Shown here: positions 5,608-62,314 of the stretch, in pieces | Layout of the letters: every line of letters begins with the position of its first letter | Numbering within the stretch: position 1 is the stretch's first letter | Assembly: GCA_045533435.1 (NCBI GenBank) | Contig: JAZSHT010000104.1 | Span: 1,590-65,589 of the forward strand | DNA length: 64,000 bases | Origin: Eubacteriales bacterium | GTDB lineage: Bacteria; Bacillota; Clostridia; Oscillospirales; CAG-272 | Reading direction: 5' to 3' | The notes under the pieces: model-generated | Told to the model about the DNA's origin: nothing | Database searches by the model: none | The model's input: only the letters and a program-made list of their open reading frames with translations | Position numbers and translations under genes: made by a program

Positions 5608-5646
5608 CCGTTAGCCGTTAGCCGTTAGCTGTTAGCGAGTAACTCT
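5605..5646 (+). repeat. heptamer array, class TAGCCGT (about 5 units: 3 x TAGCCGT, TAGCTGT, TAGCGAG)
   Basis: Read directly. The first TAG is the mutS stop codon. Confidence 0.9.
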
Positions 5647-7703: not shown

Positions 7704-8840
7704 ATGTTAAAAATATTAAAAACTGACGGCAGAGCAAGAAGATGTGAATTTGAAACAGTTCACGGAACAATTCAAACACCTGTCTTTATGAATGTAGGCA
7801 CATGCGCCGCAATCAAGGGCGGTATATCCTCAATGGACTTAAAGGATGTAAAATGTCAGGTTGAATTATCAAATACATACCACCTACACATTCGCCCGGG
7901 TGATAGACTTATTCACGATTTAGGCGGACTTCATAAGTTTATGAATTGGGATAAGCCAATCTTAACCGATAGCGGCGGATTTCAGGTTTTCTCCCTTGCT
8001 CAATTACGCAAAATAACCGAAGAGGGCGTTAAATTCGCATCTCACATTGATGGTAAGCGTATTTTTATGGGTCCTGAGGAATCAATGCAAATTCAATCAA
8101 ACCTAGGCTCAACAATCGCTATGGCATTTGATGAATGTATTGAAAACCCTGCCAAATATGACTATACCAAGCAGTCCTGCGACCGTACAGTAAGATGGTT
8201 AAAGCGTTGTAAGGTAGAACTTGACAGACTTAATTCACTTCCCGATACAATCAATAAAAACCAAATGCTTTTCGGTATTAACCAAGGTAGCACATACGAG
8301 GATTTAAGAATTAAGCATATGCAAGAAATTGCAGAGCTTGACCTTGACGGCTACGCAATCGGTGGTCTTGCCGTAGGCGAGGAAACTGAGGAAATGTATC
8401 GTATAATTGACATCGTAGAGCCACATATGCCTGTAAATAAGCCAAGATACCTAATGGGCGTAGGCACACCCTGTAACATTCTTGAAGCGGTACATCGCGG
8501 TATTGACTTCTTTGACTGTGTAATGCCATCAAGAAACGCAAGACACGGTAACCTCTTTACATGGCACGGTAAAATGAATATCATGAACGAAAAATACCGT
8601 GATGATGCGAAGCCAATAGATGAAAACTGTAAATGCCCTGCTTGTCAGCATTATTCAAGAGCATATATAAGACATCTTATCAAGGCAAAGGAAACACTCG
8701 GTATGCGCCTTTGCGTGCTTCATAACCTCTATTTCTATAATGACCTTATGGAAAAAATCAGAGAAGCGCTTGATAATGACTACTTTGAAAGCTTCTACCA
8801 AAAGTATCGCAATATCTTAGGCGATAGAAGCACTAACTAG
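7704..8840 (+). CDS. tgt: queuine tRNA-ribosyltransferase (tRNA-guanine transglycosylase)
   Basis: 378 aa with TPVFMNVGT, DSGGFQV and the Zn site CxCxxC...H (CKCPACQHYSRAYIRH). The TAG stop is followed directly by 6 x TGGTCAG. Confidence 0.96.
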   Translation: MLKILKTDGRARRCEFETVHGTIQTPVFMNVGTCAAIKGGISSMDLKDVKCQVELSNTYHLHIRPGDRLIHDLGGLHKFMNWDKPILTDSGGFQVFSLAQLRKITEEGVKFASHIDGKRIFMGPEESMQIQSNLGSTIAMAFDECIENPAKYDYTKQSCDRTVRWLKRCKVELDRLNSLPDTINKNQMLFGINQGSTYEDLRIKHMQEIAELDLDGYAIGGLAVGEETEEMYRIIDIVEPHMPVNKPRYLMGVGTPCNILEAVHRGIDFFDCVMPSRNARHGNLFTWHGKMNIMNEKYRDDAKPIDENCKCPACQHYSRAYIRHLIKAKETLGMRLCVLHNLYFYNDLMEKIREALDNDYFESFYQKYRNILGDRSTN

Positions 8841-8882
8841 TGGTCAGTGGTCAGTGGTCAGTGGTCAGTGGTCAGTGGTCAA
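8838..8882 (+). repeat. heptamer array, class TGGTCAG (TAG + 5 x TGGTCAG + TGGTCAA)
   Basis: Read directly. Starts at the tgt TAG stop. Followed by hairpins CCTTCTCC-TTGA-GGAGAAGG (8886-8905) and GTCAAC-TTT-GTTGAC (8907-8921). Confidence 0.95.
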
Positions 8883-9780: not shown

Positions 9781-9824
9781 AACAATCTCTCCATTAGGTC
9801 TGCCTAATGGAGAGATTGTTTTAT
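9781..9824. terminator. bidirectional terminator
   Basis: Perfect 18-bp stem AACAATCTCTCCATTAGG / CCTAATGGAGAGATTGTT with loop TCTG. Lies between convergent genes. Confidence 0.85.
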
Positions 9825-10177
9825 TAAAAATTAAAGAAATCGGAAAAATATTCTTTTCCATATTTGTTTCTGAATATATTAATATCTAATCTGAATGATT
9901 TTGAGCTTCTTTTATCAATAAAAATTTCAGGAATATTGTGTATAGCATCAGCAAAATCAAATATTTTTTCATTATTTCCTTCATTTAGACAATTAAATAA
10001 TGTATCTATGCAGTATATTAGAATTGAGTAATCATTATTCGAAGAAAATTGTTCTTTTATCTGTTTTAAACTTTTAATTTCTTTATCTAATTCGTCTTTA
10101 TTGTAGTGACCGGTTGTATGATAAAATCGCACCATAATAAAGCTATGTTGTAGCTTTTCAAACACCGAAATATCCAT
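9824..10177 (-). CDS. hypothetical protein
   Basis: 117-aa ORF with RBS AAGGGGGA. No recognisable motifs. Shares a bidirectional terminator with the upstream gene. Confidence 0.55.
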   Translation of the reverse strand: MDISVFEKLQHSFIMVRFYHTTGHYNKDELDKEIKSLKQIKEQFSSNNDYSILIYCIDTLFNCLNEGNNEKIFDFADAIHNIPEIFIDKRSSKSFRLDINIFRNKYGKEYFSDFFNF

Positions 10178-17236: not shown

Positions 17237-17328
17237 GACTTCGCTTCGCTCGTAACACCTCACTTGGCGTTGGTGAACAAGCTCCCCACGCCTGCGTGGG
17301 CTAGGCGAACCTAATTCAAGCAAAGCTT

Positions 17329-28304: not shown

Positions 28305-28440
28305 AATTAGAGGGGATGTTGCAATAAGAACCTGCTACGCAGAACCTTGTTACTCGCAGGCTCGTAATAAGCACAGACCAAAAACAGACACATATCTCAT
28401 AAAAAAGTTCTATTTGTAATTCAAAATATTCTTTAATGTT

Positions 28441-33772: not shown

Positions 33773-35245
33773 ATGTTTAGAAATGTAACGCCAGAAAGCG
33801 TTGGTGTTGACTCTAAAAATCTTTTTAAGCTTATAAAAAGGCTAAACGCCTTGCATATGCACAGCCTTTTAGTAGCAAGGGGCAACGATATTTTTTGCGA
33901 ATGCTATTGGAAGCCATTTGATAAGGACTTTAACCACAGAATGTATTCTGTTACAAAGAGCTTTGTGTCGGTTGCAATCGGTCTATGTGTAGAGGATGGC
34001 TTGCTTGAATTAGATGACCCAATTATAGAATATTTTCCTGAAAAAATCAAAAAAGAGCCAGGGGAGTATCTAAAAAAGCAAACAATTCGCGATATGCTTA
34101 CCATGACAACGGTAGGATTTTGTCAAGATTGGTTTAAAGAAAAGCCTTATGACAGAACGGAATTTTATTTAAATGACCAAAACAAAAAGCATCCAAGCGG
34201 AACACTTTGGGAATATGATAGCGCAGGGTCGCAGGTGCTTTCATCATTGGTTGAAAAGGTAACAGGCAAGAGCATTTTTGATTTCTTAAATGAAAGAATT
34301 TTCACAAAATTAGATGCATTTAAAAATGCCACCATATTAAAGACACCTAACGGCGATAGCTGGGGCGATTCGGCTCTTATTTGCACACCGAGGGATTTAC
34401 TCGCATTTGCTCGCTTCGTGTTAAATTACGGCGTATATAACGGCGAAAGGCTGATGAATGAGGACTATCTAAGAGAAGCAACCGCAAGACATAAGGATAA
34501 CTCTCCATCTGCCCACAGGGATTCCTTGCACCGTGGCTACGGCTATCAATTTTGGCGCGCGCCCAATGATAGCTTTGCATTTGTGGGAATGGGAAATCAG
34601 CTTGCTATTTGTGTGCCAGGCAAGGACTTAATTTTCGTTTGCACCGCAGACAATCAAGGCAGTGAATTTTCAACAGAGCTTATTGTAAACGGCTTTTATG
34701 AGTACATTGTTGATGAAATAAGCGACACTCCCCTGCCTGAAAATGAAAATAATTCAAAAATGCTTAATTCTCTCATAAATTCCCTTGAGCTTTACTGTGA
34801 ATACGGCTATGTTGACTCCCCATACCGTGAAATTATAAATGGCGTAACATATAAGTGCGAGGAAAATCAAATGGGAATTAAAAGCTTCCGCTTTGATTTT
34901 GCAAACGATAAAGAGGGAACACTTACATACGAAAATGAAAACGGTACAATGGTATTGCCATTTAAGATAAACTCAAACTATTTTGGTAAGTTCCCTGAGG
35001 AAGGCTATTCCAACGAATATGGCTCTTTACGCACACAGGATGGCTTTAAATATAACTGTGCAACAAGTGGTGCTTGGACACAAACGGACAAAATAACAGT
35101 ATTTTCACAAATTATTGATAAATACTTCGGCAATGTAACATTTTCATTCTATTTTAAGGATGATTTAGCATTTTTAAGATGCGAAAAAACTGCCGAGGAC
35201 TTCCTTTGGCAATACAAAGGCGACGCCGTTGGCGTCAGGGTATAG
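33773..35245 (+). CDS. serine hydrolase, beta-lactamase/transpeptidase-like family
   Basis: 490 aa with SxxK motif (SVTKSF). The last codons and the TAG stop are encoded by a TAGGGTA-class heptamer array. Confidence 0.82.
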   Translation: MFRNVTPESVGVDSKNLFKLIKRLNALHMHSLLVARGNDIFCECYWKPFDKDFNHRMYSVTKSFVSVAIGLCVEDGLLELDDPIIEYFPEKIKKEPGEYLKKQTIRDMLTMTTVGFCQDWFKEKPYDRTEFYLNDQNKKHPSGTLWEYDSAGSQVLSSLVEKVTGKSIFDFLNERIFTKLDAFKNATILKTPNGDSWGDSALICTPRDLLAFARFVLNYGVYNGERLMNEDYLREATARHKDNSPSAHRDSLHRGYGYQFWRAPNDSFAFVGMGNQLAICVPGKDLIFVCTADNQGSEFSTELIVNGFYEYIVDEISDTPLPENENNSKMLNSLINSLELYCEYGYVDSPYREIINGVTYKCEENQMGIKSFRFDFANDKEGTLTYENENGTMVLPFKINSNYFGKFPEEGYSNEYGSLRTQDGFKYNCATSGAWTQTDKITVFSQIIDKYFGNVTFSFYFKDDLAFLRCEKTAEDFLWQYKGDAVGVRV

Positions 35246-35263
35246 GATATAGGGTATAGGGGT
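35236..35263 (+). repeat. heptamer array, class TAGGGTA (CAGGGTA TAGGATA TAGGGTA TAGGGGT)
   Basis: Read directly. Supplies the last codons and the TAG stop (35243-35245) of the upstream CDS. Confidence 0.85.
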
Positions 35264-35383
35264 TCACTTCGCTCACAGGGGTAATTTCCTACTAAGAAGT
35301 AATAATCTCGCTACGAAACGAAGTTGAGTAATTTCGCTATTATTGCATAACACTTAACAAAGTTAAGTTCATAACTTAAAACA

Positions 35384-36558: not shown

Positions 36559-36597
36559 TAGCCGCCAGCCGTTAGCAGCCAGCGGTCAGCCGTTAAC
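36559..36597 (+). repeat. heptamer array, class TAGCCGT (TAGCCGC CAGCCGT TAGCAGC CAGCGGT CAGCCGT TAAC)
   Basis: Read directly. Starts 2 nt after the TAA stop of the CopZ-like gene. Confidence 0.85.
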
Positions 36598-37070: not shown

Positions 37071-37265
37071 ATGCTTGATGTGGCAACATCGTTTAATAAC
37101 ATAAAATTAAATAGCTTTTTCTCACAAAATGCAAAATAAAGCGCTCTATTTTGCATTTTTTGCTAAAATAGATACGGTTATTTTGCACTTTTTGATATTT
37201 ATTTTGATTGTAAAGTATGGTATAATTATTACAACATAGATAATTGAGCTTTAGGGGGGCGTTAT

Positions 37266-39623: not shown

Positions 39624-39636
39624 TTCGCTTCGCTCA

Positions 39637-39671
39637 CAGCGGTCAGCCGTTAGCCGTTAGCGGTTAGCGAG
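39637..39671 (+). repeat. heptamer array, class TAGCCGT (CAGCGGT CAGCCGT TAGCCGT TAGCGGT TAGCGAG)
   Basis: Read directly. Preceded by the TAG stop (39621-39623) and the box TTCGCTTCGCTCACAG. Confidence 0.88.
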
Positions 39672-40353: not shown

Positions 40354-40388
40354 CTGACCACCGACCACTAAACACTGACCACTAAAAA
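40354..40388 (-). repeat. heptamer array, reverse orientation of class TGGTCAG (CTGACCA CCGACCA CTAAACA CTGACCA CTAAAAA)
   Basis: Read directly. Overlaps the start of a rho-independent terminator. Confidence 0.8.
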
Positions 40389-41949: not shown

Positions 41950-41983
41950 TAGTGGTCAGTGATCAGTGGTCAGTGATCAGTAG
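41950..41983 (+). repeat. heptamer array, left arm of an inverted pair (TAG TGGTCAG TGATCAG TGGTCAG TGATCAG TAG)
   Basis: Starts 2 nt after the pncB TAA. Complementary to 42073-42103. Confidence 0.92.
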
Positions 41984-42072: not shown

Positions 42073-42103
42073 CTGACCACTGACCACTGACTACTGACCA
42101 CTG
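42073..42103 (-). repeat. heptamer array, right arm of an inverted pair (CTGACCA CTGACCA CTGACTA CTGACCA CTG)
   Basis: Ends 17 nt before the ymdB ATG. The reverse complement matches the left arm except at 2-3 positions. Confidence 0.92.
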
Positions 42104-42120
42104 CTTAAAGCGGATATATT

Positions 42121-42918
42121 ATGAACAACCTAAGACTTCTAGCAATCGGCGATATTGTAGGGCCGAGTGCGGTAGAATATATAAGAAAAAATTTATGGGC
42201 AATAAGAAAAAAGTACAAGATTGATGGTGTTATTGCCAACGGCGAAAATGCGTCTGAGCCAAACGGTATTGACAGGCAAACTGCCGAAACGCTTTTTGAA
42301 AGCGGTGTTGATGCAATCACAACAGGAAATCATGTATTTAGAAAAACTACGGTTTTTAAATATCTTGATGATGAGGATAGAATTTTACGCCCTCTCAATT
42401 TTGTTTCATCTTGTCCCGGACATGGAGATGCAATAATAAATATAAACGGCTATAAAATGCTACTTTTAAATGCTTTAGGTCAGGTTTATTCCGATAATCC
42501 ACCTAACTGCCCCTTTGAAGCCATAGAAAAAGCACTCAAAAGAAACGAGGGCGACTATGATTTTGCGGTTTTAGATTTTCATGCAGAGGCAACGGGAGAA
42601 AAGAAAGCAATCGCTTACAATTTTGCCGACAAAATAGGCGTAATATTCGGCACTCACACTCATATTCAAACTAATGACGCAAGAATACTTGAGGGTAAAT
42701 GCGCATATGTTACCGACATTGGTATGTGTGGCGCATATGATAGCATTTTAGGTGTTAAAAAGGAAGCTATTATATTTAAGTTAAAAAATAAAATGCTTTC
42801 AAAATTTGATTTTGCAGAAGGCGAGATTGAATTTAACGGAGCAATTTTTGAAATAGACACAGACACAGGAAAAGGCATTTCCTGTGAATTAGTAAACATT
42901 AAAGGAGATATAAAATGA
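42121..42918 (+). CDS. ymdB: YmdB-family metallophosphoesterase (2',3'-cyclic-nucleotide phosphodiesterase-like)
   Basis: 265 aa with motifs LAIGDIVG, ANGENA, TTGNH, GTHTHIQTND. Confidence 0.9.
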   Translation: MNNLRLLAIGDIVGPSAVEYIRKNLWAIRKKYKIDGVIANGENASEPNGIDRQTAETLFESGVDAITTGNHVFRKTTVFKYLDDEDRILRPLNFVSSCPGHGDAIININGYKMLLLNALGQVYSDNPPNCPFEAIEKALKRNEGDYDFAVLDFHAEATGEKKAIAYNFADKIGVIFGTHTHIQTNDARILEGKCAYVTDIGMCGAYDSILGVKKEAIIFKLKNKMLSKFDFAEGEIEFNGAIFEIDTDTGKGISCELVNIKGDIK

Positions 42919-44195
42919 AAACAACTGAGCTTTTAAATTATGTAAAAAACGGAGAATTAAACGCTAAGCTTAACGATATTTACGGCGAGGAAAATGTTGA
43001 AAGCCAAAAAGCAAGATACGAGGAAGCAATTAACGACTTTTTAAATATTTACGGAGATAGAGAGGTTTCAATTTTCTCAGTTCCAGGCAGAAGCGAAATT
43101 TCAGGTAACCATACCGACCATAACCACGGTAAGGTGCTTGCAGGCTCAATTAACCTTGATATTATTGCTATTGCATCAAAGACAGATGATGGTGTAATTA
43201 GAATTAAGTCAAAGGGTTTTGATGAGGATAAAATCGACACAAATACATATACAGAGCCAAATGAAAAGGACTTTTTCAAATCAGGCGCTTTAATTGCAGG
43301 TATGGCAAAAGCATTTACAAATGCAGGCTACAACAAGGGCGGTTATATCGCCTATACAACATCAAATGTATTTAAGGGCTCAGGACTTTCTTCCTCTGCG
43401 GCATTTGAGGTTATGGTTGGTAATATCCTTAACTATTTCTATAATGACGGCAAGGTTGACAATGTAGAAATTGCAAAAATGGCGCAATTTTCAGAGAATG
43501 TATTCTTTGGTAAGCCTTGCGGACTTATGGACCAAATGGCTTGCGCAGTTGGTGGCTTTGTTTATATTGACTTTGAGGACACAAAAAATCCTAAGATTGA
43601 AAAAATTGACTTTAACCTAAGTGGTGCAGGCTATGCGCTTTGTATTGTAAATACAGGTGGCAACCACGCAGACTTAAACGATGATTATGCTTCAGTTCCA
43701 AGTGAAATGAAAGCAGTTGCAAAGGAGCTTGGCTGCGAATATTTAAGACAAACCTGTCTTGGCGAGGTTATGGCAAATATAAAGGAGCTTCGCGAAAAGG
43801 TTGGCGACCGTGCAATTTTAAGAGCATATCACTTCTTTAACGAAAACGATAGAGTATCAGCCCAAGCAAGCTACTTAAAGGAAAATGATGTTGAAAGCTT
43901 CCTTGAATTTGTATTAAAGTCAGGAAATTCAAGCTTTAAATTCTTACAAAATGTATATACAACAAAGAATGTAAGTGAGCAGGGGCTTTCCCTTGCGCTT
44001 GCAATTACTGAAAATATCCTTTGTGATACAGGCGCAGCTTGGCGTGTTCACGGTGGTGGCTTTGCAGGTACAATTCAAGCATTCGTACCTTTTGCACAGG
44101 TTTCCGCTTATAAGGAAGAAATTGATGCAGCACTTGGCGAGGGCGCTTGTCATATTTTAAGAATCCGTCCTTACGGCGCAATTCAAGTAATGTAA
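42915..44195 (+). CDS. galactokinase-family GHMP kinase
   Basis: 426 aa with GRSEISGNHTDHNHG (galactokinase signature-like) and GHMP motif GSGLSSSAA. Overlaps the ymdB stop by 4 nt. Confidence 0.8.
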   Translation: MKTTELLNYVKNGELNAKLNDIYGEENVESQKARYEEAINDFLNIYGDREVSIFSVPGRSEISGNHTDHNHGKVLAGSINLDIIAIASKTDDGVIRIKSKGFDEDKIDTNTYTEPNEKDFFKSGALIAGMAKAFTNAGYNKGGYIAYTTSNVFKGSGLSSSAAFEVMVGNILNYFYNDGKVDNVEIAKMAQFSENVFFGKPCGLMDQMACAVGGFVYIDFEDTKNPKIEKIDFNLSGAGYALCIVNTGGNHADLNDDYASVPSEMKAVAKELGCEYLRQTCLGEVMANIKELREKVGDRAILRAYHFFNENDRVSAQASYLKENDVESFLEFVLKSGNSSFKFLQNVYTTKNVSEQGLSLALAITENILCDTGAAWRVHGGGFAGTIQAFVPFAQVSAYKEEIDAALGEGACHILRIRPYGAIQVM

Positions 44196-44203
44196 TATTA
44201 TTA

Positions 44204-44376
44204 GTTATGAATCCGCTATGCGAATGTTATGAACTTGCTACGCAAGCGTTATGAATTTTGCGAAACAAAATGTTATGATATGATTGCCAAACGCCGTCAG
44301 GCTCATAACACGCGTAGCGTTCATAACGACGAAGTCTCATAACTTGTCCTGAGGCTTCGCGGAAGGCAATCATAAC
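44204..44376. repeat. zipper element: 4 x GTTATGA then 4 x TCATAAC, each separated by 8-26 nt
   Basis: GTTATGA at 44204, 44226, 44248, 44272. TCATAAC at 44303, 44321, 44337, 44370. Spacers contain mini-hairpins (CTTGC-TAC-GCAAG). Confidence 0.85.
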
Positions 44377-44377
44377 T

Positions 44378-44410
44378 GTTCTCCTTTCGGAGAACGAAAG
44401 GAGAACTATG
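44378..44410 (+). promoter_or_regulatory. alternative hairpins involving the Shine-Dalgarno sequence of the MBL gene
   Basis: GTTCTCCTTTC (44378-44388) is exactly complementary to GAAAGGAGAAC (44396-44406, the RBS). Its first 7 nt also pair with GGAGAAC (44389-44395). Confidence 0.5.
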
Positions 44411-45181
44411 ATTACTGCATACACACTTTTCTCAGGCTCAGGTGGGAACTGTACATATGTAACAGATGGAAAAGCAAAAATACTTATTGATGCCGGAAAG
44501 AGCTGTCTTGCCATTGAAAAAGCTCTTAATGCTCTTGGCGCATCACTTTCAAGCATCAACGATATTTTTGTAACTCACGAGCATAGCGACCACACCGTAG
44601 GGCTTGAGGTAATTTCTAAAAAATATAATATTCCTGTGCATTTTGCTTACCCTTCATACGATAAGGCAATTCAAAACACCACATATTTAAAGCGTAGTGC
44701 TATTCGCCACGAGGTGCTTTTTGAGAAAAAGGTGGGGGATGTGTTAATAAAATCCTTTGAGGTGCCACACGATAGTATGCAAAATCTTGGCTACATAATA
44801 AGTGATGGCGAGGACACCTTCGGCACTGCTACCGATATGGGACATGTTACCGAAAGCCTTGCAAATGAGCTTATAAAATGTAGATGTGTTTTAATTGAAG
44901 CAAACCACGATAAAAAGATGCTTAAGGAAGGAAAGTATCCACAGTTTTTAAAGGATAGAATTTTGTCCCCACACGGACATTTATCAAATGAAAACTGCGC
45001 CCGCCTTGCTTGCTATCTTGCAGATAACGGAGTTAAATGCATCACTCTTGGGCATTTAAGCAAGGAAAATAATTTACCAAAAATTGCACTTGACACAGTA
45101 AATAACTTACTTGAAGCAAATAATTTATCCGTCGATTTATCTGTCGCTTCATCTGAAGAAGCGGTATTGCTTACAAGGTAA
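44408..45181 (+). CDS. MBL-fold metallo-hydrolase (YycJ/WalJ-like)
   Basis: 257 aa with HEHSDH motif. The RBS is embedded in alternative hairpins. Confidence 0.85.
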   Translation: MITAYTLFSGSGGNCTYVTDGKAKILIDAGKSCLAIEKALNALGASLSSINDIFVTHEHSDHTVGLEVISKKYNIPVHFAYPSYDKAIQNTTYLKRSAIRHEVLFEKKVGDVLIKSFEVPHDSMQNLGYIISDGEDTFGTATDMGHVTESLANELIKCRCVLIEANHDKKMLKEGKYPQFLKDRILSPHGHLSNENCARLACYLADNGVKCITLGHLSKENNLPKIALDTVNNLLEANNLSVDLSVASSEEAVLLTR

Positions 45182-45187
45182 GCAATA

Positions 45188-45218
45188 TAGTGGTCAGTGG
45201 CTAGTGGTCAGTGGTCAG
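45188..45218 (+). repeat. heptamer array, left arm (TAG TGGTCAG TGGCTAG TGGTCAG TGGTCAG)
   Basis: Starts 6 nt after the TAA of the MBL gene. Complementary to 45330-45356. Confidence 0.92.
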
Positions 45219-45329
45219 TAAGCTTGCTATACGACTTTTACAACTAACCGCTAATTATGTACCGCTTATTAAAATGACGTTTAACGCTTATCTTTGTTTT
45301 TGTTCGTGTTCTTTGGTCTATCCGCTTGT

Positions 45330-45356
45330 CACTGACCACTGACCACTGATCACTAC
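45330..45356 (-). repeat. heptamer array, right arm (CA CTGACCA CTGACCA CTGATCA CTAC)
   Basis: Followed by AAAA and then CGACTGAAAGGAG (45361-45373) and the rsmG ATG. Confidence 0.92.
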
Positions 45357-46110: not shown

Positions 46111-47124
46111 ATGTTAATTAACGATAACCATTACTTAACCGTTATAGAAAATATAAAAGCGCAGATAGAAAATTCCCGACATAAGGCAGCTCTCAAGGTT
46201 AATCAAGAGTTAATTTTGCTCTATTACAACATTGGAAAAATCATTAATGAAAATAAATCTTGGGGAAATAAATTTATAGACACACTTGCTAAGGATATAA
46301 AAATAATGTATCCAAGCTCCACGGGATATTCGGTGCGAAATTTGAAATATATGTCAAAATTAGCGGAATCCTACACGGATATAGAATTTGTGCAACAGGC
46401 TGTTGCACAAATTCCTTGGGGACATAATACAGTAATTTTAGATAAAATAGAATCATCCGAATCAAGAAATTGGTACATCCAAAAAACTATTGAAAACGGT
46501 TGGTCCCGTTCTATTCTATCTCATCAAATAGATACCAAGTTATATGAAAGGCAAGCTATCGCTAACAAAGTTTCAAATTTTGAAAAGCAGCTTCCTTCTC
46601 CACAAAGCGAGCTTGCCTCTCAAGCCATGAAGGACCCGTATATATTTGATTTTATTACCTTCAAAGAAGATATGCTTGAAAGAGATTTGGAAAATGAGCT
46701 AATTAAAAAAATCACATCTCTTCTATTAGAATTGGGAACAGGATTTGCTTTCGTTGGAAATCAATATCATATGAATGTCGGCGGCGAAGATTTCTACATC
46801 GACCTTTTATTCTATAACATAAATTTAAGATGCTATGTTGTGATAGAATTAAAAACTGATGACTTTAAGCCAGAATATGCAGGAAAATTAAATTTTTATC
46901 TTTCTGCAGTTGATGACATCTTAAAAAAGGATGGAGACAATCCAACCATAGGACTTTTACTGTGTCAAAGCAAAAATAATATAATTGCCGAATACTCACT
47001 AAGAGATATGTCAAAGCCTATGGGAGTAAGCGAATATAAAATCACTTGTAGCTTGCCTAAAGACTTAGAAAAGCAATTACCTTCCATCGAAGATATTCAA
47101 AAACGCATTTCTAATAAATTTTAA
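46111..47124 (+). CDS. DUF1016 / YhcG-type PD-(D/E)XK nuclease family protein
   Basis: 337 aa with a characteristic DUF1016 N-terminus (...NQELILLYYNIGKII...GYSVRNLKYM...IPWGHN) and a C-terminal D...ELK nuclease core (DLLFYNINLRCYVVIELK). Confidence 0.85.
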   Translation: MLINDNHYLTVIENIKAQIENSRHKAALKVNQELILLYYNIGKIINENKSWGNKFIDTLAKDIKIMYPSSTGYSVRNLKYMSKLAESYTDIEFVQQAVAQIPWGHNTVILDKIESSESRNWYIQKTIENGWSRSILSHQIDTKLYERQAIANKVSNFEKQLPSPQSELASQAMKDPYIFDFITFKEDMLERDLENELIKKITSLLLELGTGFAFVGNQYHMNVGGEDFYIDLLFYNINLRCYVVIELKTDDFKPEYAGKLNFYLSAVDDILKKDGDNPTIGLLLCQSKNNIIAEYSLRDMSKPMGVSEYKITCSLPKDLEKQLPSIEDIQKRISNKF

Positions 47125-47135
47125 GGTATAAAATT

Positions 47136-47495
47136 ATGACCGAGCAAGAAATATTAAATCTTAAAAAATGCGTTGCAAGTGATAATGCTACACAAAAAAA
47201 GATAAATATAAGCGTTTTTTATGTTGCAAGAGCCTCATTTAACGATGAAATGCTTGTGGAAAGCCTTGAAATAAAGATTGAGGACATTAAGGACAAGGAC
47301 CTTTATTGGTTTGACTTATATTTAGGCAGAAAAAGCGACAACAAAATTAAAATTGCCATAGCATATATAGAAAATGAATACATTCATTTTCTTTTTGATG
47401 ATGGCGAAAAAATTAAGGCTGTTAAGAACGCTTACACAGTTTTAGCAAGTGATGACCTTAATGATAGCTACCTAATTGCAACTCATATATGGTAA
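47136..47495 (+). CDS. hypothetical protein
   Basis: 119-aa ORF coupled to the DUF1016 gene, followed by a terminator. No motifs recognised. Confidence 0.55.
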   Translation: MTEQEILNLKKCVASDNATQKKINISVFYVARASFNDEMLVESLEIKIEDIKDKDLYWFDLYLGRKSDNKIKIAIAYIENEYIHFLFDDGEKIKAVKNAYTVLASDDLNDSYLIATHIW

Positions 47496-49135: not shown

Positions 49136-49163
49136 TGGTCAGTGGCTAGTGATCAGTAGTTAG
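49133..49163 (+). repeat. heptamer array (TAG TGGTCAG TGGCTAG TGATCAG TAG TTAG)
   Basis: The first TAG is the citrate synthase stop. Followed by TTAGCTTTTGCACAACATTACA, which is homologous to the sequence next to the array at 52941-52974. Confidence 0.92.
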
Positions 49164-52100: not shown

Positions 52101-52433
52101 TTAGTATTCAATAAAGGTTAGCTTATCTATTTTTTCGCACATATTATAAAATTTTACGGCTTCTGTAAATTGGTCAATGGTTGTTCTGTACGCTTCTATT
52201 TTCTCTTTTTCATAATTTTGCACCATTTCAATTATATCATTTTCCGCACACCTAATAGCATCGTCCACGGTCATAGAGGAGTATTTTTTTATATGCCCTA
52301 TACGGAGAAGTCTGTATGCACAATGATAATATTTATCCTCTAATAGCTCCTTGTGGCAATAAAAATATGCAAGCTCTCTTACTCTTATATAATCAGCCGC
52401 TTGTTCAATCATTCCATCTATTCCGTATAACAT
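52101..52433 (-). CDS. hypothetical protein
   Basis: 110-aa ORF with RBS AGAGGT, divergent from an XRE regulator. No motifs recognised. Confidence 0.55.
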   Translation of the reverse strand: MLYGIDGMIEQAADYIRVRELAYFYCHKELLEDKYYHCAYRLLRIGHIKKYSSMTVDDAIRCAENDIIEMVQNYEKEKIEAYRTTIDQFTEAVKFYNMCEKIDKLTFIEY

Positions 52434-52940: not shown

Positions 52941-52974
52941 CTGCTGACCGCTGACCACTGATCACTGACCACTA
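52941..52974 (-). repeat. heptamer array (reverse complement: TAG TGGTCAG TGATCAG TGGTCAG CGGTCAG CAG)
   Basis: This TAG is the stop of the minus-strand gene 52972-53847. Inverted counterpart of the array at 49133-49163. Confidence 0.92.
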
Positions 52975-53874: not shown

Positions 53875-53910
53875 CAGGGAATAGGGTATAGGGAATAGGA
53901 GATAGGGAAA
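53875..53910 (+). repeat. heptamer array, class TAGGGTA (CAGGGAA TAGGGTA TAGGGAA TAGGAGA TAGGGAA)
   Basis: Lies in the 5' UTR of the minus-strand gene and reads CCCTAT-type in that mRNA. Adjacent to CGACTGAAAGGAG (reverse complement of 53858-53870). Confidence 0.9.
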
Positions 53911-54170: not shown

Positions 54171-54204
54171 ATCCCTATCCCCTATCCCCTATATCCTATC
54201 CCCC
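54171..54204 (-). repeat. heptamer array, CCCTATC-type (ATCCCTA TCCCCTA TCCCCTA TATCCTA TCCCCC)
   Basis: Lies in the 5' UTR of the transporter gene. Followed by AAAG and then CGACTGAAAGGAG (54209-54221). Confidence 0.9.
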
Positions 54205-55491: not shown

Positions 55492-57318
55492 ATGATTAGA
55501 GACGACTTAAGAAATGTAGCAATTATTGCTCACGTTGACCACGGCAAAACAACTCTTGTTGACGGTATGCTTCAGCAAGGTGGCGCATATCACGAAAACC
55601 AAGCAACTACTGACAGAGTAATGGACTCTAACGCTCTTGAAAAGGAAAGAGGAATTACTATCCTTGCAAAAAATACTGCTATTCACTATGGCGACAAAAA
55701 AATCAATGTAATTGACACCCCAGGCCACGCTGACTTTGGCGGCGAGGTTGAAAGAATTCTTAAAATGGTTAACGGTGTTATCCTTCTTGTTGATGCAGCA
55801 GAGGGACCAATGCCACAAACAAGATTCGTTCTTCGCAAGGCTATGGAATTAAATCACAGAATTATCGTTGTTGTTAATAAGATTGACCGTCCTGATGCTC
55901 GTGTAACTGAGGTTATTGATGAGGTTTTAGAGCTTCTTATTGACTTAAATGCAACTGATGAGCAGCTTGACTCTCCAATGCTTTTCTGCTCAGGTAGAGC
56001 AGGCACAGCGTCATTCTCTCCTGATGTAGAGGGCGAAAACTTAATTCCACTTCTTGATACAATCGTAAATTACATTCCAGCTCCAGAGGGAGAAGAGGAT
56101 GAAAGCCTTCAATTACTCGTTTCATCTATTGACTATAACGAGTATGTTGGTAAAATCGGTGTAGGTAGAATTGAAAGAGGCTCACTTAAGGTAAACCAAG
56201 AGGTTACAGTATGTAACTTCCACTCAGATGAAGCTCCAAGAAGAGCAAAAATCGTTTCAATTTATCAATTTGATGGTCTTTCCCGTACACAGGTACAAAG
56301 TGCAACAGTTGGCGATATCGTATGCTTCTCAGGTGTTGAAGAGCTTTCAATCGGCGATACACTTTGCTCTGCTGGTAATGTTGAGCCACTTGAATTTGTA
56401 AAGGTTTCAGAGCCTACTCTTGAAATGACATTTGCAGTTAACGATAGCCCATTTGCAGGCAAAGAAGGTAAATTCGTAACATCCCGCCAAATTAGAGACC
56501 GCCTTTACAAGGAAACACTTAAGGATGTATCTCTCCGTGTAAGCGATGGCGACACTACCGACTCATTTAGAGTTGCAGGTAGAGGCGAAATGCACTTATC
56601 AATCCTTATTGAAACAATGCGCCGTGAGGGCTTTGAGCTTTGCTGCTCAACTCCAAGAGTGCTTTATAAAACAATTGATGGCATTTTACATGAGCCAATG
56701 GAAAGAGTTTCTATTGATGTACCGGCAGAGAGCGCAGGCGCAGTTATTCAAAAGCTTAGCGCAAGAAAGGGCGAGCTTTTAGAAATGGACCCAACAGGCT
56801 CAAGAACTAAGCTTGAATATATTATTCCATCAAGATGCTTACTTGGTTACAGAAACGAGTTTATGACAGATACAAAGGGCGAGGGCATTTTAAATACACT
56901 CTTTGATGGCTATCAACCATTCAAGGGAGAGGTTGTAACAAGATTTACAGGCTCACTTATCGCATCCGAAACAGGCGAAGCAACATCATACGGTCTATTT
57001 AAGACACAAGACAGAGGCGCTATGTTTATCGGCGTTCAAACTCCTGTTTATGAGGGAATGATTGTTGGCGAATGTCCAAAGATGGAGGATATCGTTCTTA
57101 ATGTTTGCCAAAAGAAGCACTTAACTGCTATTCGTTCAAAGGGCGCAGATGAGGCTTTAATTCTCGTTCCACCAAAGCAATTATCCCTTGAGCAAGCTAT
57201 TGAGTATATTGCGGATGATGAGCTTATTGAGGTAACACCTAAGTCAATTAGATTAAGAAAGAAAATTCTTGATACTGCATTAAGACTTAAGGCGCAAGCG
57301 AAATTAAAAAAGCAGTGA
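55492..57318 (+). CDS. typA: translational GTPase TypA/BipA
   Basis: The ATG at 55492 has RBS AAAGGAG ([24 protein letters not shown]). The TGA stop lies inside the first TGATCAG unit of an array. Confidence 0.95.
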
Positions 57319-57350
57319 TCAGTGGTCAGTGGTCAGTGTTCAGCAGCTAG
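57313..57350 (+). repeat. heptamer array (CAG TGATCAG TGGTCAG TGGTCAG TGTTCAG CAG CTAG)
   Basis: The typA TGA stop (57316-57318) is part of the first unit. Confidence 0.9.
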
Positions 57351-59255: not shown

Positions 59256-59287
59256 GCGGTCAGCCGTTAGCAGTTAGCTGTTAGCAG
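59256..59287 (+). repeat. heptamer array, class TAGCCGT (GCGGT CAGCCGT TAGCAGT TAGCTGT TAGCAG)
   Basis: Starts immediately after the rlmH TAA. Confidence 0.88.
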
Positions 59288-59619: not shown

Positions 59620-61494
59620 ATGAAATCAGCACAGATATGCGTAATAGGCGCAGGCCACGCAGGAATAGAAGCATCTTTAGCATCCGCAAGAATGGGAATG
59701 GACACCATTCTTTTCACAATGTCCCTAGATGCTATTGCAAATATGCCTTGCAATCCATCAATCGGTGGTACTGCAAAGGGTCATTTAGTATATGAAATTG
59801 ACGCTCTTGGCGGAGAAATGGGCAGAGGCGCAGATAATGTTACCTTGCAATCAAGAACATTAAATTTAGGCAAGGGTGCGGCTGTTTACTCAAAGAGAGT
59901 ACAAGCGGACAGAATGAAATACCGTGATATAATGAAGTCCACTCTTGAAAATACGCCTAACCTTCGTGTAATTCAAGCAGAAATTGTTGATATTAAAACA
60001 ATAGAGGAAAACGGTATTAAGAAAATTGATAGCGTGATTACCCGTTTAGGCGAGGAATATAAGACACAGTGTGCCATTATTTGCACAGGTACATATCTTA
60101 ATGCCACCATTCACACAGGTAATATCTGTTATCAAAGCGGACCGGACTCCCTTTCAGGGGCTAATTTCTTAACGGAAGCGTTAAAGCGTGAGGGTATAAA
60201 TCTTATGCGCTTTAAAACAGGCACGCCTTCAAGAATTCATGCGGACAGTATTGATTATTCTAAGCTTGAAATTCAAGAGGGAGAAAGCGACACTCTTCCT
60301 TTCTGCTGGGAAACCGATGAAAAGGAATACCAAAAAAAGAGCCAAATTCCTTGCTATATCGTTTATACAAACTTAAATACTCACGAAATTATAAAGTCTA
60401 ACATAAAGAAAAGTGCAATGTATTCAGGCAATATTACAGGCACAGGTCCAAGATATTGCCCATCTATTGAAGACAAAATCGTGCGCTTTGCCGACAAGGA
60501 AAGACATCAGCTTTTCGTTGTGCCTATGGGCTTAAATACTAAGGAAATTTACTTACAAGGCTTTTCAACAAGTATGCCTATTGATGTTCAAGAAAAGATG
60601 GTACACTCTCTGGTTGGCTTTGAAAATGCAAAAATTATGCGTTATGCATACGCAATTGAATATGATTGCACCGACCCACAAGAGCTGCTTGCCACCCTTG
60701 AATACAAAAAAATCAGTGGTTTATACGGCGCAGGACAGTTTAATGGTACATCAGGCTATGAGGAAGCCGCAGCCCAAGGACTTGTGGCAGGTATCAATGC
60801 TGTATTAAAAATCAAAGGCGAAGAGCCTATGATTTTACCTCGTTCATCATCATATATTGGCACTTTAATTGATGACCTTGTAACAAAGGGCACAAATGAG
60901 CCATACAGAATGATGACCTCACGAAGCGAATACCGTTTGCTTTTACGCCAAGACAATGCGGACAAGCGTTTAACTCCTATCGGCCGCCGTGTAGGTCTTG
61001 TAAGTGATAAGCAATGGGACTACTACCAAAGAAAGCAACAAGCAATCGAAGCGGAAAAGGAAAGACTAAAAACCGTTCACATTAAGCCATCAAAAGAGGT
61101 AAATGAGGTAGTTGAAGCATTAGGCACAACTCCGCTTTATGCAGGAATGACTCTTTATGAGCTTATTAAAAGACCTCAAATTGACCTTAACAATATGGCA
61201 AAATTCGACACATCCCGCCCAATTTTGCCTCAAAGTGTAGTTTTCACCGCTCAAACAGACATTAAATACGATGGCTATGTAAAAAAACAGTTAGCCGAGG
61301 TTGCCCGTACCGAAAAATTAGAGGAAAAGCCTCTCCCCGCCGACCTTGATTACACCGAAATCAAAGGACTTCGCATAGAAGCATGTCAAAAGCTAAACAA
61401 GGTAAAGCCATTAACCTTAGGTCAAGCATCTCGTATCAGCGGCGTTTCCCCTGCGGACATTTCCGTTCTTTTGATTTACTTACAATCGAAATAG
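59620..61494 (+). CDS. mnmG: tRNA uridine-5-carboxymethylaminomethyl(34) synthesis enzyme MnmG (GidA)
   Basis: 624 aa with FAD motif VIGAGHAGIEA and the GTGPRYCPSIEDK motif. Confidence 0.96.
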   Translation: MKSAQICVIGAGHAGIEASLASARMGMDTILFTMSLDAIANMPCNPSIGGTAKGHLVYEIDALGGEMGRGADNVTLQSRTLNLGKGAAVYSKRVQADRMKYRDIMKSTLENTPNLRVIQAEIVDIKTIEENGIKKIDSVITRLGEEYKTQCAIICTGTYLNATIHTGNICYQSGPDSLSGANFLTEALKREGINLMRFKTGTPSRIHADSIDYSKLEIQEGESDTLPFCWETDEKEYQKKSQIPCYIVYTNLNTHEIIKSNIKKSAMYSGNITGTGPRYCPSIEDKIVRFADKERHQLFVVPMGLNTKEIYLQGFSTSMPIDVQEKMVHSLVGFENAKIMRYAYAIEYDCTDPQELLATLEYKKISGLYGAGQFNGTSGYEEAAAQGLVAGINAVLKIKGEEPMILPRSSSYIGTLIDDLVTKGTNEPYRMMTSRSEYRLLLRQDNADKRLTPIGRRVGLVSDKQWDYYQRKQQAIEAEKERLKTVHIKPSKEVNEVVEALGTTPLYAGMTLYELIKRPQIDLNNMAKFDTSRPILPQSVVFTAQTDIKYDGYVKKQLAEVARTEKLEEKPLPADLDYTEIKGLRIEACQKLNKVKPLTLGQASRISGVSPADISVLLIYLQSK

Positions 61495-61496
61495 CC

Positions 61497-61637
61497 CTTA
61501 CTTTTTCTTTGGAAAAAGAAAAAGTAGGCAAAAAGAAATCGAAAGGTACACACAAACAAAATCGTTAGTTTTCTTATTCTTTGGAAAAAGAAAAAGTAAG
61601 CAAAAAGAAATCAAAAAGACATACAAACATAAAAATT
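61497..61637 (+). repeat. tandem duplication, period about 72 bp, 2 copies, each starting with a Y-tract/R-tract hairpin
   Basis: The core CTTTGGAAAAAGAAAAAGTA(G/A)GCAAAAAGAAATC(G/A)AAA occurs at 61506 and 61578. Confidence 0.85.
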
Positions 61638-61670
61638 AAGCCCTGCTGATTTTGTCAGTAGGGCTTTGTT
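61638..61670. terminator. bidirectional terminator
   Basis: AGCCCTGCTGA-TTTTG-TCAGTAGGGCT (1 mismatch) plus TTTGTTTT. Confidence 0.75.
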
Positions 61671-62135: not shown

Positions 62136-62314
62136 GGTATCTCCTTTAAATAATTTTCCTTATGTATAAATTATATCATTTTCCTTTATAAAAATAAATA
62201 GCACCAAACGCAAAATAAGGGCGTTTATTTTGCAAAAAGTGCAAAATATACGGCGGTATTTCTCAAAACTGAATTTTTCTTGACAAAAACATATTATTTA
62301 TGTATAATTAAATT

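Follow-up and report, generated by a model that had tools for sequence, protein, structure and literature searches.

The 64,000-nucleotide window of contig JAZSHT010000104.1 from an Eubacteriales bacterium was analysed for the repeat element that separates a GHMP/galactokinase-like kinase gene from a metallo-beta-lactamase (MBL)-fold hydrolase gene. This spacer holds four GTTATGA boxes followed by four boxes of the complement TCATAAC, an arrangement termed the zipper here. The zipper was confirmed as a real and highly non-random structured inverted repeat. The region 44196-44407 is probably a member, without an open reading frame (ORF), of a family of small selfish intergenic cassettes that resemble the intervening sequences (IVSs) of 23S rRNA, in this case lodged in an operon spacer. 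The observations behind this reading concern the anatomy of the element, its dispersed family, the polarity of its modules, the variability of the locus and the association of such arrays with genes of the PF05635 family.

Architecture and predicted fold of the zipper

The eight boxes were found exactly at the coordinates given by an earlier sequence-only reading of the window (Table 1). On both strands of the whole window GTTATGA occurs 17 times against 9.98 copies expected from shuffles, and eight of the 17 are crowded into 173 nt (Poisson P (>=8) = 6.8e-18). The element had also been said to fill the entire spacer, and the ORF list and Pfam indeed place it from the stop of 42915..44195 to the ATG of 44408..45181. 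With a length of 212 nt and inverted arms it has the size and ends of a MITE (miniature inverted-repeat transposable element; <500 bp, no coding capacity). The only listed ORF of at least 40 aa over it runs on the minus strand at 44227..44559 (TTG start, 110 aa) and overlaps the MBL gene. The boxes do not stand head to tail, 9-26 nt lying between them; true tandem arrays occur elsewhere in the window. The mini-hairpins CGC-TAT-GCG and CTTGC-TAC-GCAAG named in the earlier reading are present, and a palindrome was found in every inter-box spacer. The alternative register that it offered, TATGATTGCC / GGCAATCATA, is a perfect 10-nt inverted repeat. The recurrence of GCTACGC also held, at 44237, as the complement at 44312, and again at 28334 and 25690/25702; the window has 10 copies against 3.5 expected, a number reached in 0/100 shuffles.

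The junction of the two host genes was compared in closely related gut and rumen bacteria, whose loci are numbered L001 and so on. The TTGCC of the central joint is complementary to GGCAA at 44365-44369, and the zipper of L001 has an identical partial-box duplicate, also beside TTGCC. The terminal module can form two competing hairpins, one of 7 bp and one of 12 bp (GUUCUCCUUUCG/CGAAAGGAGAAC), and the latter is predicted to sequester the Shine-Dalgarno sequence (SD). The same module closes the TTTAGCT/TCATAAC-type elements of L001, L003 and L004, and in L002 it stands before a different gene. The SD-sequestering hairpin GTTCTCCTTTCG / CGAAAGGAGAAC (window 44378-44406; L004:5971-6000; L002:8262-8300) accompanies the TTTAGCT/TCATAAC families and stands before the MBL gene also in L004, where a single box is left of the zipper. 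No plus-strand terminator was found in the spacer and promoter-like sites show no excess there, so co-transcription with the operon is likely. Rfam 15, at gathering and permissive thresholds, gave no relevant match in the region (best E = 0.96), and the window yields tRNA only.

Both strands of the element fold far more strongly than their shuffles (z = -8.2 and -7.8). Four nested 7-bp helices, as proposed earlier, are feasible, but they are not the predicted optimum (-73.0 kcal/mol when enforced against -84.3 kcal/mol). The optimal RNA fold pairs B1 with b2 and B2 with b1 (ensemble probability 0.98); spacers S1 (CGCUAUGCG) and R1 (CGCGUAGCG) are paired as well, so that an interrupted duplex of about 25 bp results, and the 3' part of the predicted RNA forms the SD-sequestering hairpin. 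The arms are predicted to pair as the terminal inverted repeats of an IVS do, with the complementarity confined to the boxes. For the gene-bearing cassettes of L281 and L284, described below, 45-49 long-range arm-arm pairs are predicted across the 354-nt ORF. The degenerate boxes of L002, which looked G·U-compatible on the sense strand, were considered as evidence for RNA pairing and set aside: the inverted L002 copy has the same variants, so these boxes are inherited and not independent.

The spacers of the box arrays were found to share a structure. At or below the 5% level of their own shuffles fold 27 of 51 spacers, where 2.6 would be expected. The longest perfect stem in 44 spacers has a mean of 3.98 bp against 1.93 +/- 0.10 in shuffles and reaches at least 3 bp in 40 of them. 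The stems are GC-rich (65% GC) and the boxes AT-rich. On the TCATAAC/TTTAGCT/AATTCAT/TATATCG strand the loops belong to the G..A class 34 times (GTA, GAA, GCA, GTAA and GTCA) and to the T..C class once (binomial p = 2e-9), the counted hairpins coming partly from related elements and not all being independent. Closure by 5'-C...G-3' was seen in 29 of the 34 G..A loops. Exact boxes number 3-4 in most arms and no more than 5, with degenerate copies besides. In the window the first arm carries on its plus strand the complement orientation of the module (T..C/T..T-type loops) and the second arm the G..A-loop orientation. In a zipper the module lies on one strand in one arm and on the other strand in the second arm, which gives the symmetry of terminal inverted repeats in DNA. 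Between the arms the boxes are identical in 28/28 columns and the non-box columns in about 40-50% after optimal alignment; the arms are therefore not simple inverted duplicates, an origin that was ruled out.

The sequences d(GCGNAGC) and d(C-GNA-G) are known as an extraordinarily stable DNA mini-hairpin motif (PMC13037366, PMC3201870). The C·G-closed G..A loops match it, and several spacers are literally GCGAAGC, GCGTAGC or GAC-GAA-GTC. The known motif is structural only and not a genetic element, and its use as the spacer of a box array is new here. This likeness bears on a quite unlikely explanation, in which the zipper is a repetitive extragenic palindrome (REP), bacterial interspersed mosaic element (BIME) or REP doublet forming a hairpin (REPIN), moved on single-stranded DNA by a distant REP-associated tyrosine transposase (RAYT; IS200/IS605-like Y1), with PF05635 as a passenger. 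REPINs, the nearest geometric analogue, are defined by polar hairpin modules in two-fold symmetric doublets (PMC3116915), and the intergenic site, the several sequence sub-families per genome and the probable single-stranded-DNA hairpin form are also shared. The palindrome of REPs, however, is conserved, is accompanied by a conserved 5' tetranucleotide in inverted doublets and makes one hairpin per unit or arm, whereas here all hairpins differ, conservation is limited to the 7-nt box and there are 3-5 units in an arm. No RAYT was present in the neighbourhoods inspected, the whole window not having been scanned for one, and the recurrent neighbour is the four-helix-bundle gene of PF05635 and not a Y1 transposase.

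Turnover of the spacer and dispersed copies

The kinase/MBL spacer exists in at least six states among the relatives. It is missing, with the stop overlapping the start (TAATG), in L002, L279, L280, L480 and L005 (MBL identity 62-93%). One TTTAGCT box with the SD hairpin remains in L004, and L003 has a single arm of five TTTAGCT boxes with hairpins. A zipper of AGCTAAA x4 / TTTAGCT x5 is present in L001 (97% MBL identity) and in L277 and L278 (89%), all three being independent assemblies. The GTTATGA zipper is the state of the window, and in L281-L291 (85% MBL identity) a zipper of AATTCAT x4-5 / ATGAATT x4-5 surrounds a PF05635 gene of 117 aa. The zipper is absent from the closest relatives at 93%, 88%, 87% and 86% MBL identity, and other box types occur at 97% and 85%. 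The exact protein sequence of the window's MBL gene is not on record. The element at this locus is a fast-turnover one, gained, lost and replaced rapidly among close relatives. Filled (CAAGTAATGTAA...) and empty (CAAGTTTTATAATG) sites differ by indels at the stop/start overlap, and a direct repeat was not identified.

A conserved cis-regulatory RNA for the MBL gene is hard to reconcile with an element so variably present in close relatives. A dedicated RNA of this kind, in which the box registers control the SD hairpin at 44378-44406, is highly improbable. It would agree with the strong fold (z = -8.2), with the competing hairpins that free or sequester the SD, and with a possible pairing of the last box with the start-codon region (AATCATA/TATGATT). 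This pairing, however, is lost in L001, Rfam gives no match, the orthologous spacers of the closest relatives lack the element or have swapped boxes, and homologous elements precede unrelated genes, also in inverted orientation.

A further candidate is a double-stranded protein-binding array (operator, iteron or centromere-like) that would control the MBL gene or local DNA transactions. The box starts of the first arm are spaced by 22, 22 and 24 bp, about two helical turns; that the boxes of one element are identical hints at a sequence-specific reader, and box identity is kept across hosts of very different GC. Yet the other arm is spaced by 18, 16 and 33 bp and the inter-box distance ranges from 7 to 26 nt among elements, so helical phasing is not kept. 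Relatives with the same flanking genes have no element or another box type, the element lies inside an operon with no promoter signal, and a hairpin constraint on the spacers would be needless for a duplex-DNA operator. A binding array is accordingly very unlikely.

Relatives share the architecture of the element, and the further copies that the earlier reading had asked after do exist, with GTTATGA zippers in L002 and L157. One L002 homologue, with 73% identity over 218 nt and the same terminal SD module, stands upstream of citrate synthase. The other is inverted in the spacer between the nicotinate phosphoribosyltransferase (NAPRTase) and YmdB genes (82% identity over 89 nt). The box and hairpin zipper of L157, a metagenomic contig of 56% GC, has a first hairpin that is recognisably homologous. 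A metagenome scan for GTTATGA x3 with gaps of 10-20 was unspecific, most listed matches being unrelated tandem repeats; among the matches listed were L157 and the PF05635-linked L112, L045, L103 and L066. One-armed arrays with other boxes (TATATCG, GCGATAT) were found in L003 and L001, and gene-less zippers of the AATTCAT and AGCTAAA types in contigs of 36-60% GC. In scans of viral contigs with zipper-core patterns most loci failed the box/palindrome filter; about eight genuine gene-less elements were kept, with no PF05635 gene within the locus of any of them. Since the box types (GTTATGA, AGCTAAA, AATTCAT, TATATCG and others) are found in hosts of widely differing GC, each is a sub-family of its own, spread across very different hosts. 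The contig L349 (5 kb, 58% GC, from the viral collection) has the ATGAATT/AATTCAT zipper in three or four consecutive spacers, and the AT-rich boxes are kept in this GC-rich host.

PF05635 genes, heptad arrays and the selfish-cassette reading

The product of the gene enclosed in L281-L291 matches PF05635 (E = 4.2e-28), the '23S rRNA-intervening sequence protein' (S23p), and TIGR02436 (E = 2.5e-32), the 'four helix bundle protein'. The nearest solved structure is PDB 2RLD (E = 4e-29), an entry with five chains, and no PADLOC model matches the protein. More than 7,400 PF05635 relatives are listed at E <= 1e-20, many of them on very short contigs. A frameshift in an A-run of the PF05635 gene was seen at L283:781-1130, which fits cargo decay as in the Coxiella IVS ORF.

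Relatives of the cargo with about 70% identity, at other loci of gut Clostridia, all have box and hairpin arms of the ATGAATT/AATTCAT type. Their order is arm-gene-arm (L303), zipper then gene (L302, L312, L313, L316, L318) or zipper-gene-arm (L306), and in every case the cargo gene lies directly 3' of the arm in G..A orientation. The window zipper has the polarity of the complete zippers, and the MBL gene stands where these have the cargo gene. At L306:1000-1650 one arm is present twice, with the same hairpins in both copies, and in L312, L313, L316, L318 and L302 the zipper lies about 200 nt upstream of the PF05635 gene. Judged from the sequence order, these permutations and the shared hairpins of L306 would be the expected product of a circular intermediate or of site-specific recombination at the palindromes.

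The link was also found outside this box type. The loci L112, L045 and L103 (47% GC), fetched by GTTATGA x3 alone, have a PF05635 gene between inverted heptads, their arms being degenerate tandem heptads (GAGTGGA/GTTATGA/GAGTTGA) and the inverted complement. In a sample of 10 PF05635 genes from plasmids of Cyanobacteriota, Spirochaetota, Bacteroidota, Bacillota and Chloroflexota, heptad arrays adjoin all 10, and a clear inverted complement lies on the other, downstream side in nine. Nearly all of these genes stand between co-oriented host genes, such as HsdS|HsdR, DrmD|PglX, DUF1156|Swt1-HEPN and RND adaptor|permease. The median number of inverted 7-mers common to both 200-nt flanks is 11 for 17 PF05635 genes against 3 for 53 genes of the window (Mann-Whitney p = 2.7e-5), these controls being genes of an array-rich window. 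The modular inverted arrays are tightly associated with PF05635 genes. The plasmid genes (L292-L301; hosts Nostoc, Planktothrix, Monoglobus, Chlorohelix, Gloeocapsa, Pseudanabaena and others) frequently lie inside defence operons, and also just upstream of cas1.

The window itself (36.5% GC) is rich in intergenic 7-nt tandem arrays, about 20 in number, most of which begin at or just after stop codons. Three consecutive spacers of the operon carry inverted 7-mer arrays, and only in the zipper are the 7-mers separated by hairpins. For each of the tandem pairs in the NAPRTase-YmdB and MBL-RsmG spacers a stem of about 30 bp is predicted. Elsewhere the NAPRTase-YmdB spacer holds an AGCTAAA box and hairpin zipper (L001/L003) or the inverted GTTATGA zipper (L002). 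The sequence-only reading had contrasted the zipper with the tandem arrays. This contrast was not borne out, since the same spacers alternate between the two forms in sister genomes and both forms flank PF05635 genes, which makes them two forms of one class.

The tandem arrays raise the question of a locally generated, non-mobile repeat, produced when replication slips and hairpins template strand switching within a permissive spacer, with PF05635 genes merely inserting into such spacers or surviving in them. Among tandem repeats of 5-11 nt the heptanucleotide class is the most abundant one in many bacteria, a proposed source being polymerase slippage (PMC4679880). About 20 arrays of the window have no cargo gene, no transposase or target duplication was identified at the loci inspected, and copy number varies among strains in Coxiella (PMC4990558). 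Identical boxes that alternate with unrelated hairpins are, however, beyond slippage, and the loop/box polarity is 34:1 across families. Whole homologues of about 200 nt, including the SD module, stand at other genes in both orientations, and the same box types recur across hosts of 34-60% GC. Local generation of the zipper is considered unlikely.

In the preferred reading, that of a selfish cassette, each arm consists of 3-5 polar modules, on opposite strands in the two arms and resembling terminal inverted repeats, with only the boxes common to both arms. Full-length cassettes carry the PF05635/TIGR02436 gene of about 117 aa between the arms or just after a complete zipper, and plain tandem heptads are the arms of a simpler form. 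The cassettes colonise intercistronic spacers from stop to start and bring their own SD for the downstream gene. The window copy may be, like a MITE, a derivative that arose by deletion or is non-autonomous. The co-transcribed arms are predicted to base-pair and so build a long branched hairpin in the mRNA, and by analogy with the rRNA IVSs this hairpin may be an RNase III target that insulates the two cistrons. The SD hairpin would damp translation of the MBL gene, the element both supplying and partly masking its SD. Mobility would act on DNA hairpins through another enzyme, perhaps with a protein of the S23p family helping in trans.

Several results weigh against this reading. No PF05635 gene was found in the 64-kb window by tblastn, and among the loci found no GTTATGA box and hairpin element bears a gene, so that the PF05635 link of this sub-family rests on its architecture and on the AATTCAT family. 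Most heptad arrays of the window have no PF05635 gene nearby, hence an array can occur where the gene does not. Helices predicted between the arms are short and rich in AU; of these the duplex of about 25 bp alone resembles an RNase III substrate, and it hinges on the S1:R1 complementarity that other elements lack. A transcribed-strand test of G·U against A·C mismatches gave 0 vs 2, too few mismatches. The polarity count is weakened by the partial dependence of its hairpins, and the opposite-strand polarity points to a constraint at the DNA and not at the RNA level, which is in tension with the RNA-level precedent. At the loci inspected neither a transposase or recombinase nor a target-site duplication or an excision footprint was identified, so mobility is inferred from distribution only. 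Three window ORFs of a size similar to the cargo gene (47136-47495, 9824-10177 and 52101-52433) were inspected and are not PF05635.

The heptamer arrays and the S23p/PF05635 proteins may even be two halves of one undescribed mobile-cassette system, although this joint reading is doubtful. The 7-nt box would be the specificity determinant, read by a pentameric four-helix-bundle protein whose five subunits would correspond roughly to the 3-5 modules of an arm. On single-stranded DNA the boxes would be displayed by the GNA mini-hairpins. An intermediate, either circular or a hairpin, would then enter operon stop/start junctions, with the zipper mobilised in trans, and such movement would explain the LA-gene-RA, RA-LA-gene and RA-LA-gene-RA permutations.

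Relation to known repeats and significance

Among the closest known systems is the IVS of 23S rRNA in Coxiella burnetii and Leptospira. The Coxiella IVS is a selfish element of 428 nt in helix 45 of 23S rRNA with an S23p ORF; its terminal inverted repeats pair into a 28-bp stem cut by RNase III, and 2-3 tandem GACAGAT heptamers, variable among strains, extend from the cleavage site. A mobile-element origin has been hypothesised for it and is unproven (PMC4990558). The study of this IVS is the only precedent found in the open-access literature that links S23p with heptameric repeats. IVSs and cassettes share the PF05635/TIGR02436 cargo family, inverted repeats that pair across the ORF, strain-variable tandem heptamers beside the ORF (heptamers that the window also has), a sense-strand ORF in a highly transcribed host RNA, a selfish status, ORF decay and ORF-less states. 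The window element differs in lying between protein-coding cistrons and not in helix 9, 25 or 45, Rfam finding no rRNA in the window. It has a 24-nt loop in place of an S23p ORF, which is present at the same locus in L281-L291. Its arms are box and mini-hairpin arrays with complementarity in the boxes only, in place of a continuous 28-bp stem. It supplies the SD for the next gene, and cleavage by RNase III is a prediction for it.

Arrays of the TAACTGA heptamer are known from Beggiatoaceae, Cyanobacteria and Bacteroidetes and have been discussed as possible sites of a translational regulator (PMC4679880). They share the 7-nt unit in 2-6 or more copies and the intergenic, often intra-operonic site that abuts start or stop codons, and their taxa overlap those rich in PF05635 (Nostoc, Planktothrix, Bernardetia). 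They differ in being plain direct tandem repeats, and the survey mentions no inverted partners, interspersed hairpins, S23p or four-helix-bundle genes, IVSs or RNase III (PMC4679880).

A comparison with other short repeats is also instructive. The Correia/NEMIS MITEs of Neisseria are transcribed into mRNAs and cut by RNase III; their terminal inverted repeats are continuous, their target duplication is TA and their origin is presumed to lie with a DDE transposase. The window element shares with them the short non-autonomous form with inverted ends beside genes, possible expression signals for the neighbour and, as far as its predicted fold and operon position suggest, co-transcription and a hairpin that alters mRNA processing. 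Continuous repeats, a TA duplication or signs of a DDE origin were not seen in it. As for MITEs in general, dispersed homologues exist; PF05635 is the sole cargo that recurs, and it is not known to be a transposase. The intergenic heptanucleotide arrays of cyanobacteria, called STRR repeats, were reportedly described by Mazel et al. in 1990.

Other identities were rejected for the zipper. For an integron attC site the order GTTATGA...TCATAAC is reversed, the boxes deviate from RYYYAAC/GTTRRRY and there are four copies of each. The boxes are not slippery, as a -1 frameshift signal would need, and backup stop codons were rejected on sequence grounds. Repeats of only 7 nt do not fit a clustered regularly interspaced short palindromic repeat (CRISPR) array, only 7 nt being conserved also speaks against multi-site transposon ends of the Tn7/Mu type, and a plasmid iteron origin conflicts with the chromosomal operon and the lack of phasing.

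Further repeats were noted in the window (Table 1). The array units include TTAGCCG, AGTGGTC, AGGGTAT, AGCGGTT and others, mostly in the sense orientation of the upstream gene, and heptads of the CAGTGNN type also flank PF05635 genes on Chondrinema and Euhalothece plasmids. A spacer motif TAATTTCGCTA ... CGAAACGAAGTTGAG ... TAATTTCGCTA recurs, often beside box arrays, and may be a further module. The conserved motif (GGTTCAC)TTCGCTTCGCTCACAG abuts heptad arrays in a leader- or boundary-like manner. Two tandem repeats of 31-32 nt with a similar consensus (…TTATTTTGCA…AAAAGTGCAAAATA…) lie in separate spacers at 37133-37194 and 62210-62268, beside the start of a minus-strand gene and upstream of a plus-strand gene, and a common regulator may use both as operators. 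Downstream of gene 59620..61494, at 61495-61640, stand two direct copies of about 100 nt (CTTTGGAAAAAGAAAAAGTARGCAAAAAGAAATC...), which are unrelated to the heptad system. A YhcG/DUF1016 PDDEXK-nuclease gene (46111-47124) is also present in L001 and missing from the syntenic L002-L004, an insertion/deletion polymorphism directly after rsmG.

Table 1. Coordinates of the zipper, its host genes and further repeats (window positions unless a locus is named)
Feature	Position	Strand	Remarks
GHMP/galactokinase-like kinase, upstream host gene	42915..44195	+	GalKase_gal_bdg 2.3e-16, GHMP_kinases_N 1.5e-15 (Pfam)
TAA stop of kinase gene	44193-44195	+	element begins 8 nt downstream
First arm, GTTATGA x4	44204..44278	+	boxes at 44204, 44226, 44248, 44272; mini-hairpins S1-S3
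Spacer S1	44211-44225	+	CGC-TAT-GCG
Spacer S2	44233-44247	+	CTTGC-TAC-GCAAG
Spacer S3	44255-44271	+	ATTTTG-CGAA-CAAAAT
Central joint	44279..44302	+	partial box duplicate TATGA (5 nt), TTGCC, short loop AAACGCCGTCAGGC
Second arm, TCATAAC x4	44303..44376	+	boxes at 44303, 44321, 44337, 44370; mini-hairpins R1-R3
Spacer R1	44310-44320	+	ACGC-GTA-GCGT
Spacer R2	44328-44336	+	GAC-GAA-GTC
Spacer R3	44344-44369	+	contains CTTC-GCG-GAAG and GGCAA
Terminal module	44378..44407	+	GTTCTCC-TTTC-GGAGAAC, then GAAAGGAGAACT (contains SD)
MBL-fold hydrolase, downstream host gene	44408..45181	+	Lactamase_B_2 1.4e-16 (Pfam); ATG abuts element
Tandem pair, NAPRTase-YmdB spacer	41951-41981; 42073-42103	+	(AGTGGTC/AGTGATC)x4.4; inverted (CTGACCA)x4.4
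Tandem pair, MBL-RsmG spacer	45189-45219; 45330-45354	+	(AGTGGTC)x4.4; inverted (CACTGAC)x3.6
Further tandem arrays	5604-5636, 8839-8881, 35237-35261, 36560-36592, 39638-39669, 40359-40386, 49136-49160, 52944-52973, 53876-53909, 54173-54203, 57313-57343, 59256-59287		
TAATTTCGCTA/CGAAACGAAGTTGAG motif	35300-35345; L001:3640-3690; L003:3680-3712, 10040-10085; L002:3890-3915		
(GGTTCAC)TTCGCTTCGCTCACAG motif	39624-39640, 35262-35282, 17240-17260; L001:1790-1815		L001 copy in reverse complement
Zippers of L349	230-300, 2865-3020, 4505-4790		

No description of box and mini-hairpin arrays was found in the open-access literature, and an earlier account elsewhere is possible; the cassette class is widespread and apparently undescribed. 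New here are the architecture of the arms and the niche, an operon spacer, for an IVS-like or MITE-like selfish element. A conserved 7-nt box that alternates with GNA mini-hairpins, conserved in structure and free in sequence, is a new repeat architecture, which repeat finders, CRISPR detectors and Rfam all overlook. Such elements probably break metagenome assemblies and reshape operon mRNAs through processing sites and an imported SD. The locus ties together two puzzles, the build-up of intergenic 7-nt repeats, known from cyanobacteria, Bacteroidota and giant sulfur bacteria and extended here to gut Clostridia, and the role of the very large S23p family. The kinase/MBL spacer, with its natural series of filled and empty cassettes in close relatives, is a tractable model. 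Recognition of the box by the protein, if true, would reveal a new mechanism of mobility or RNA processing.

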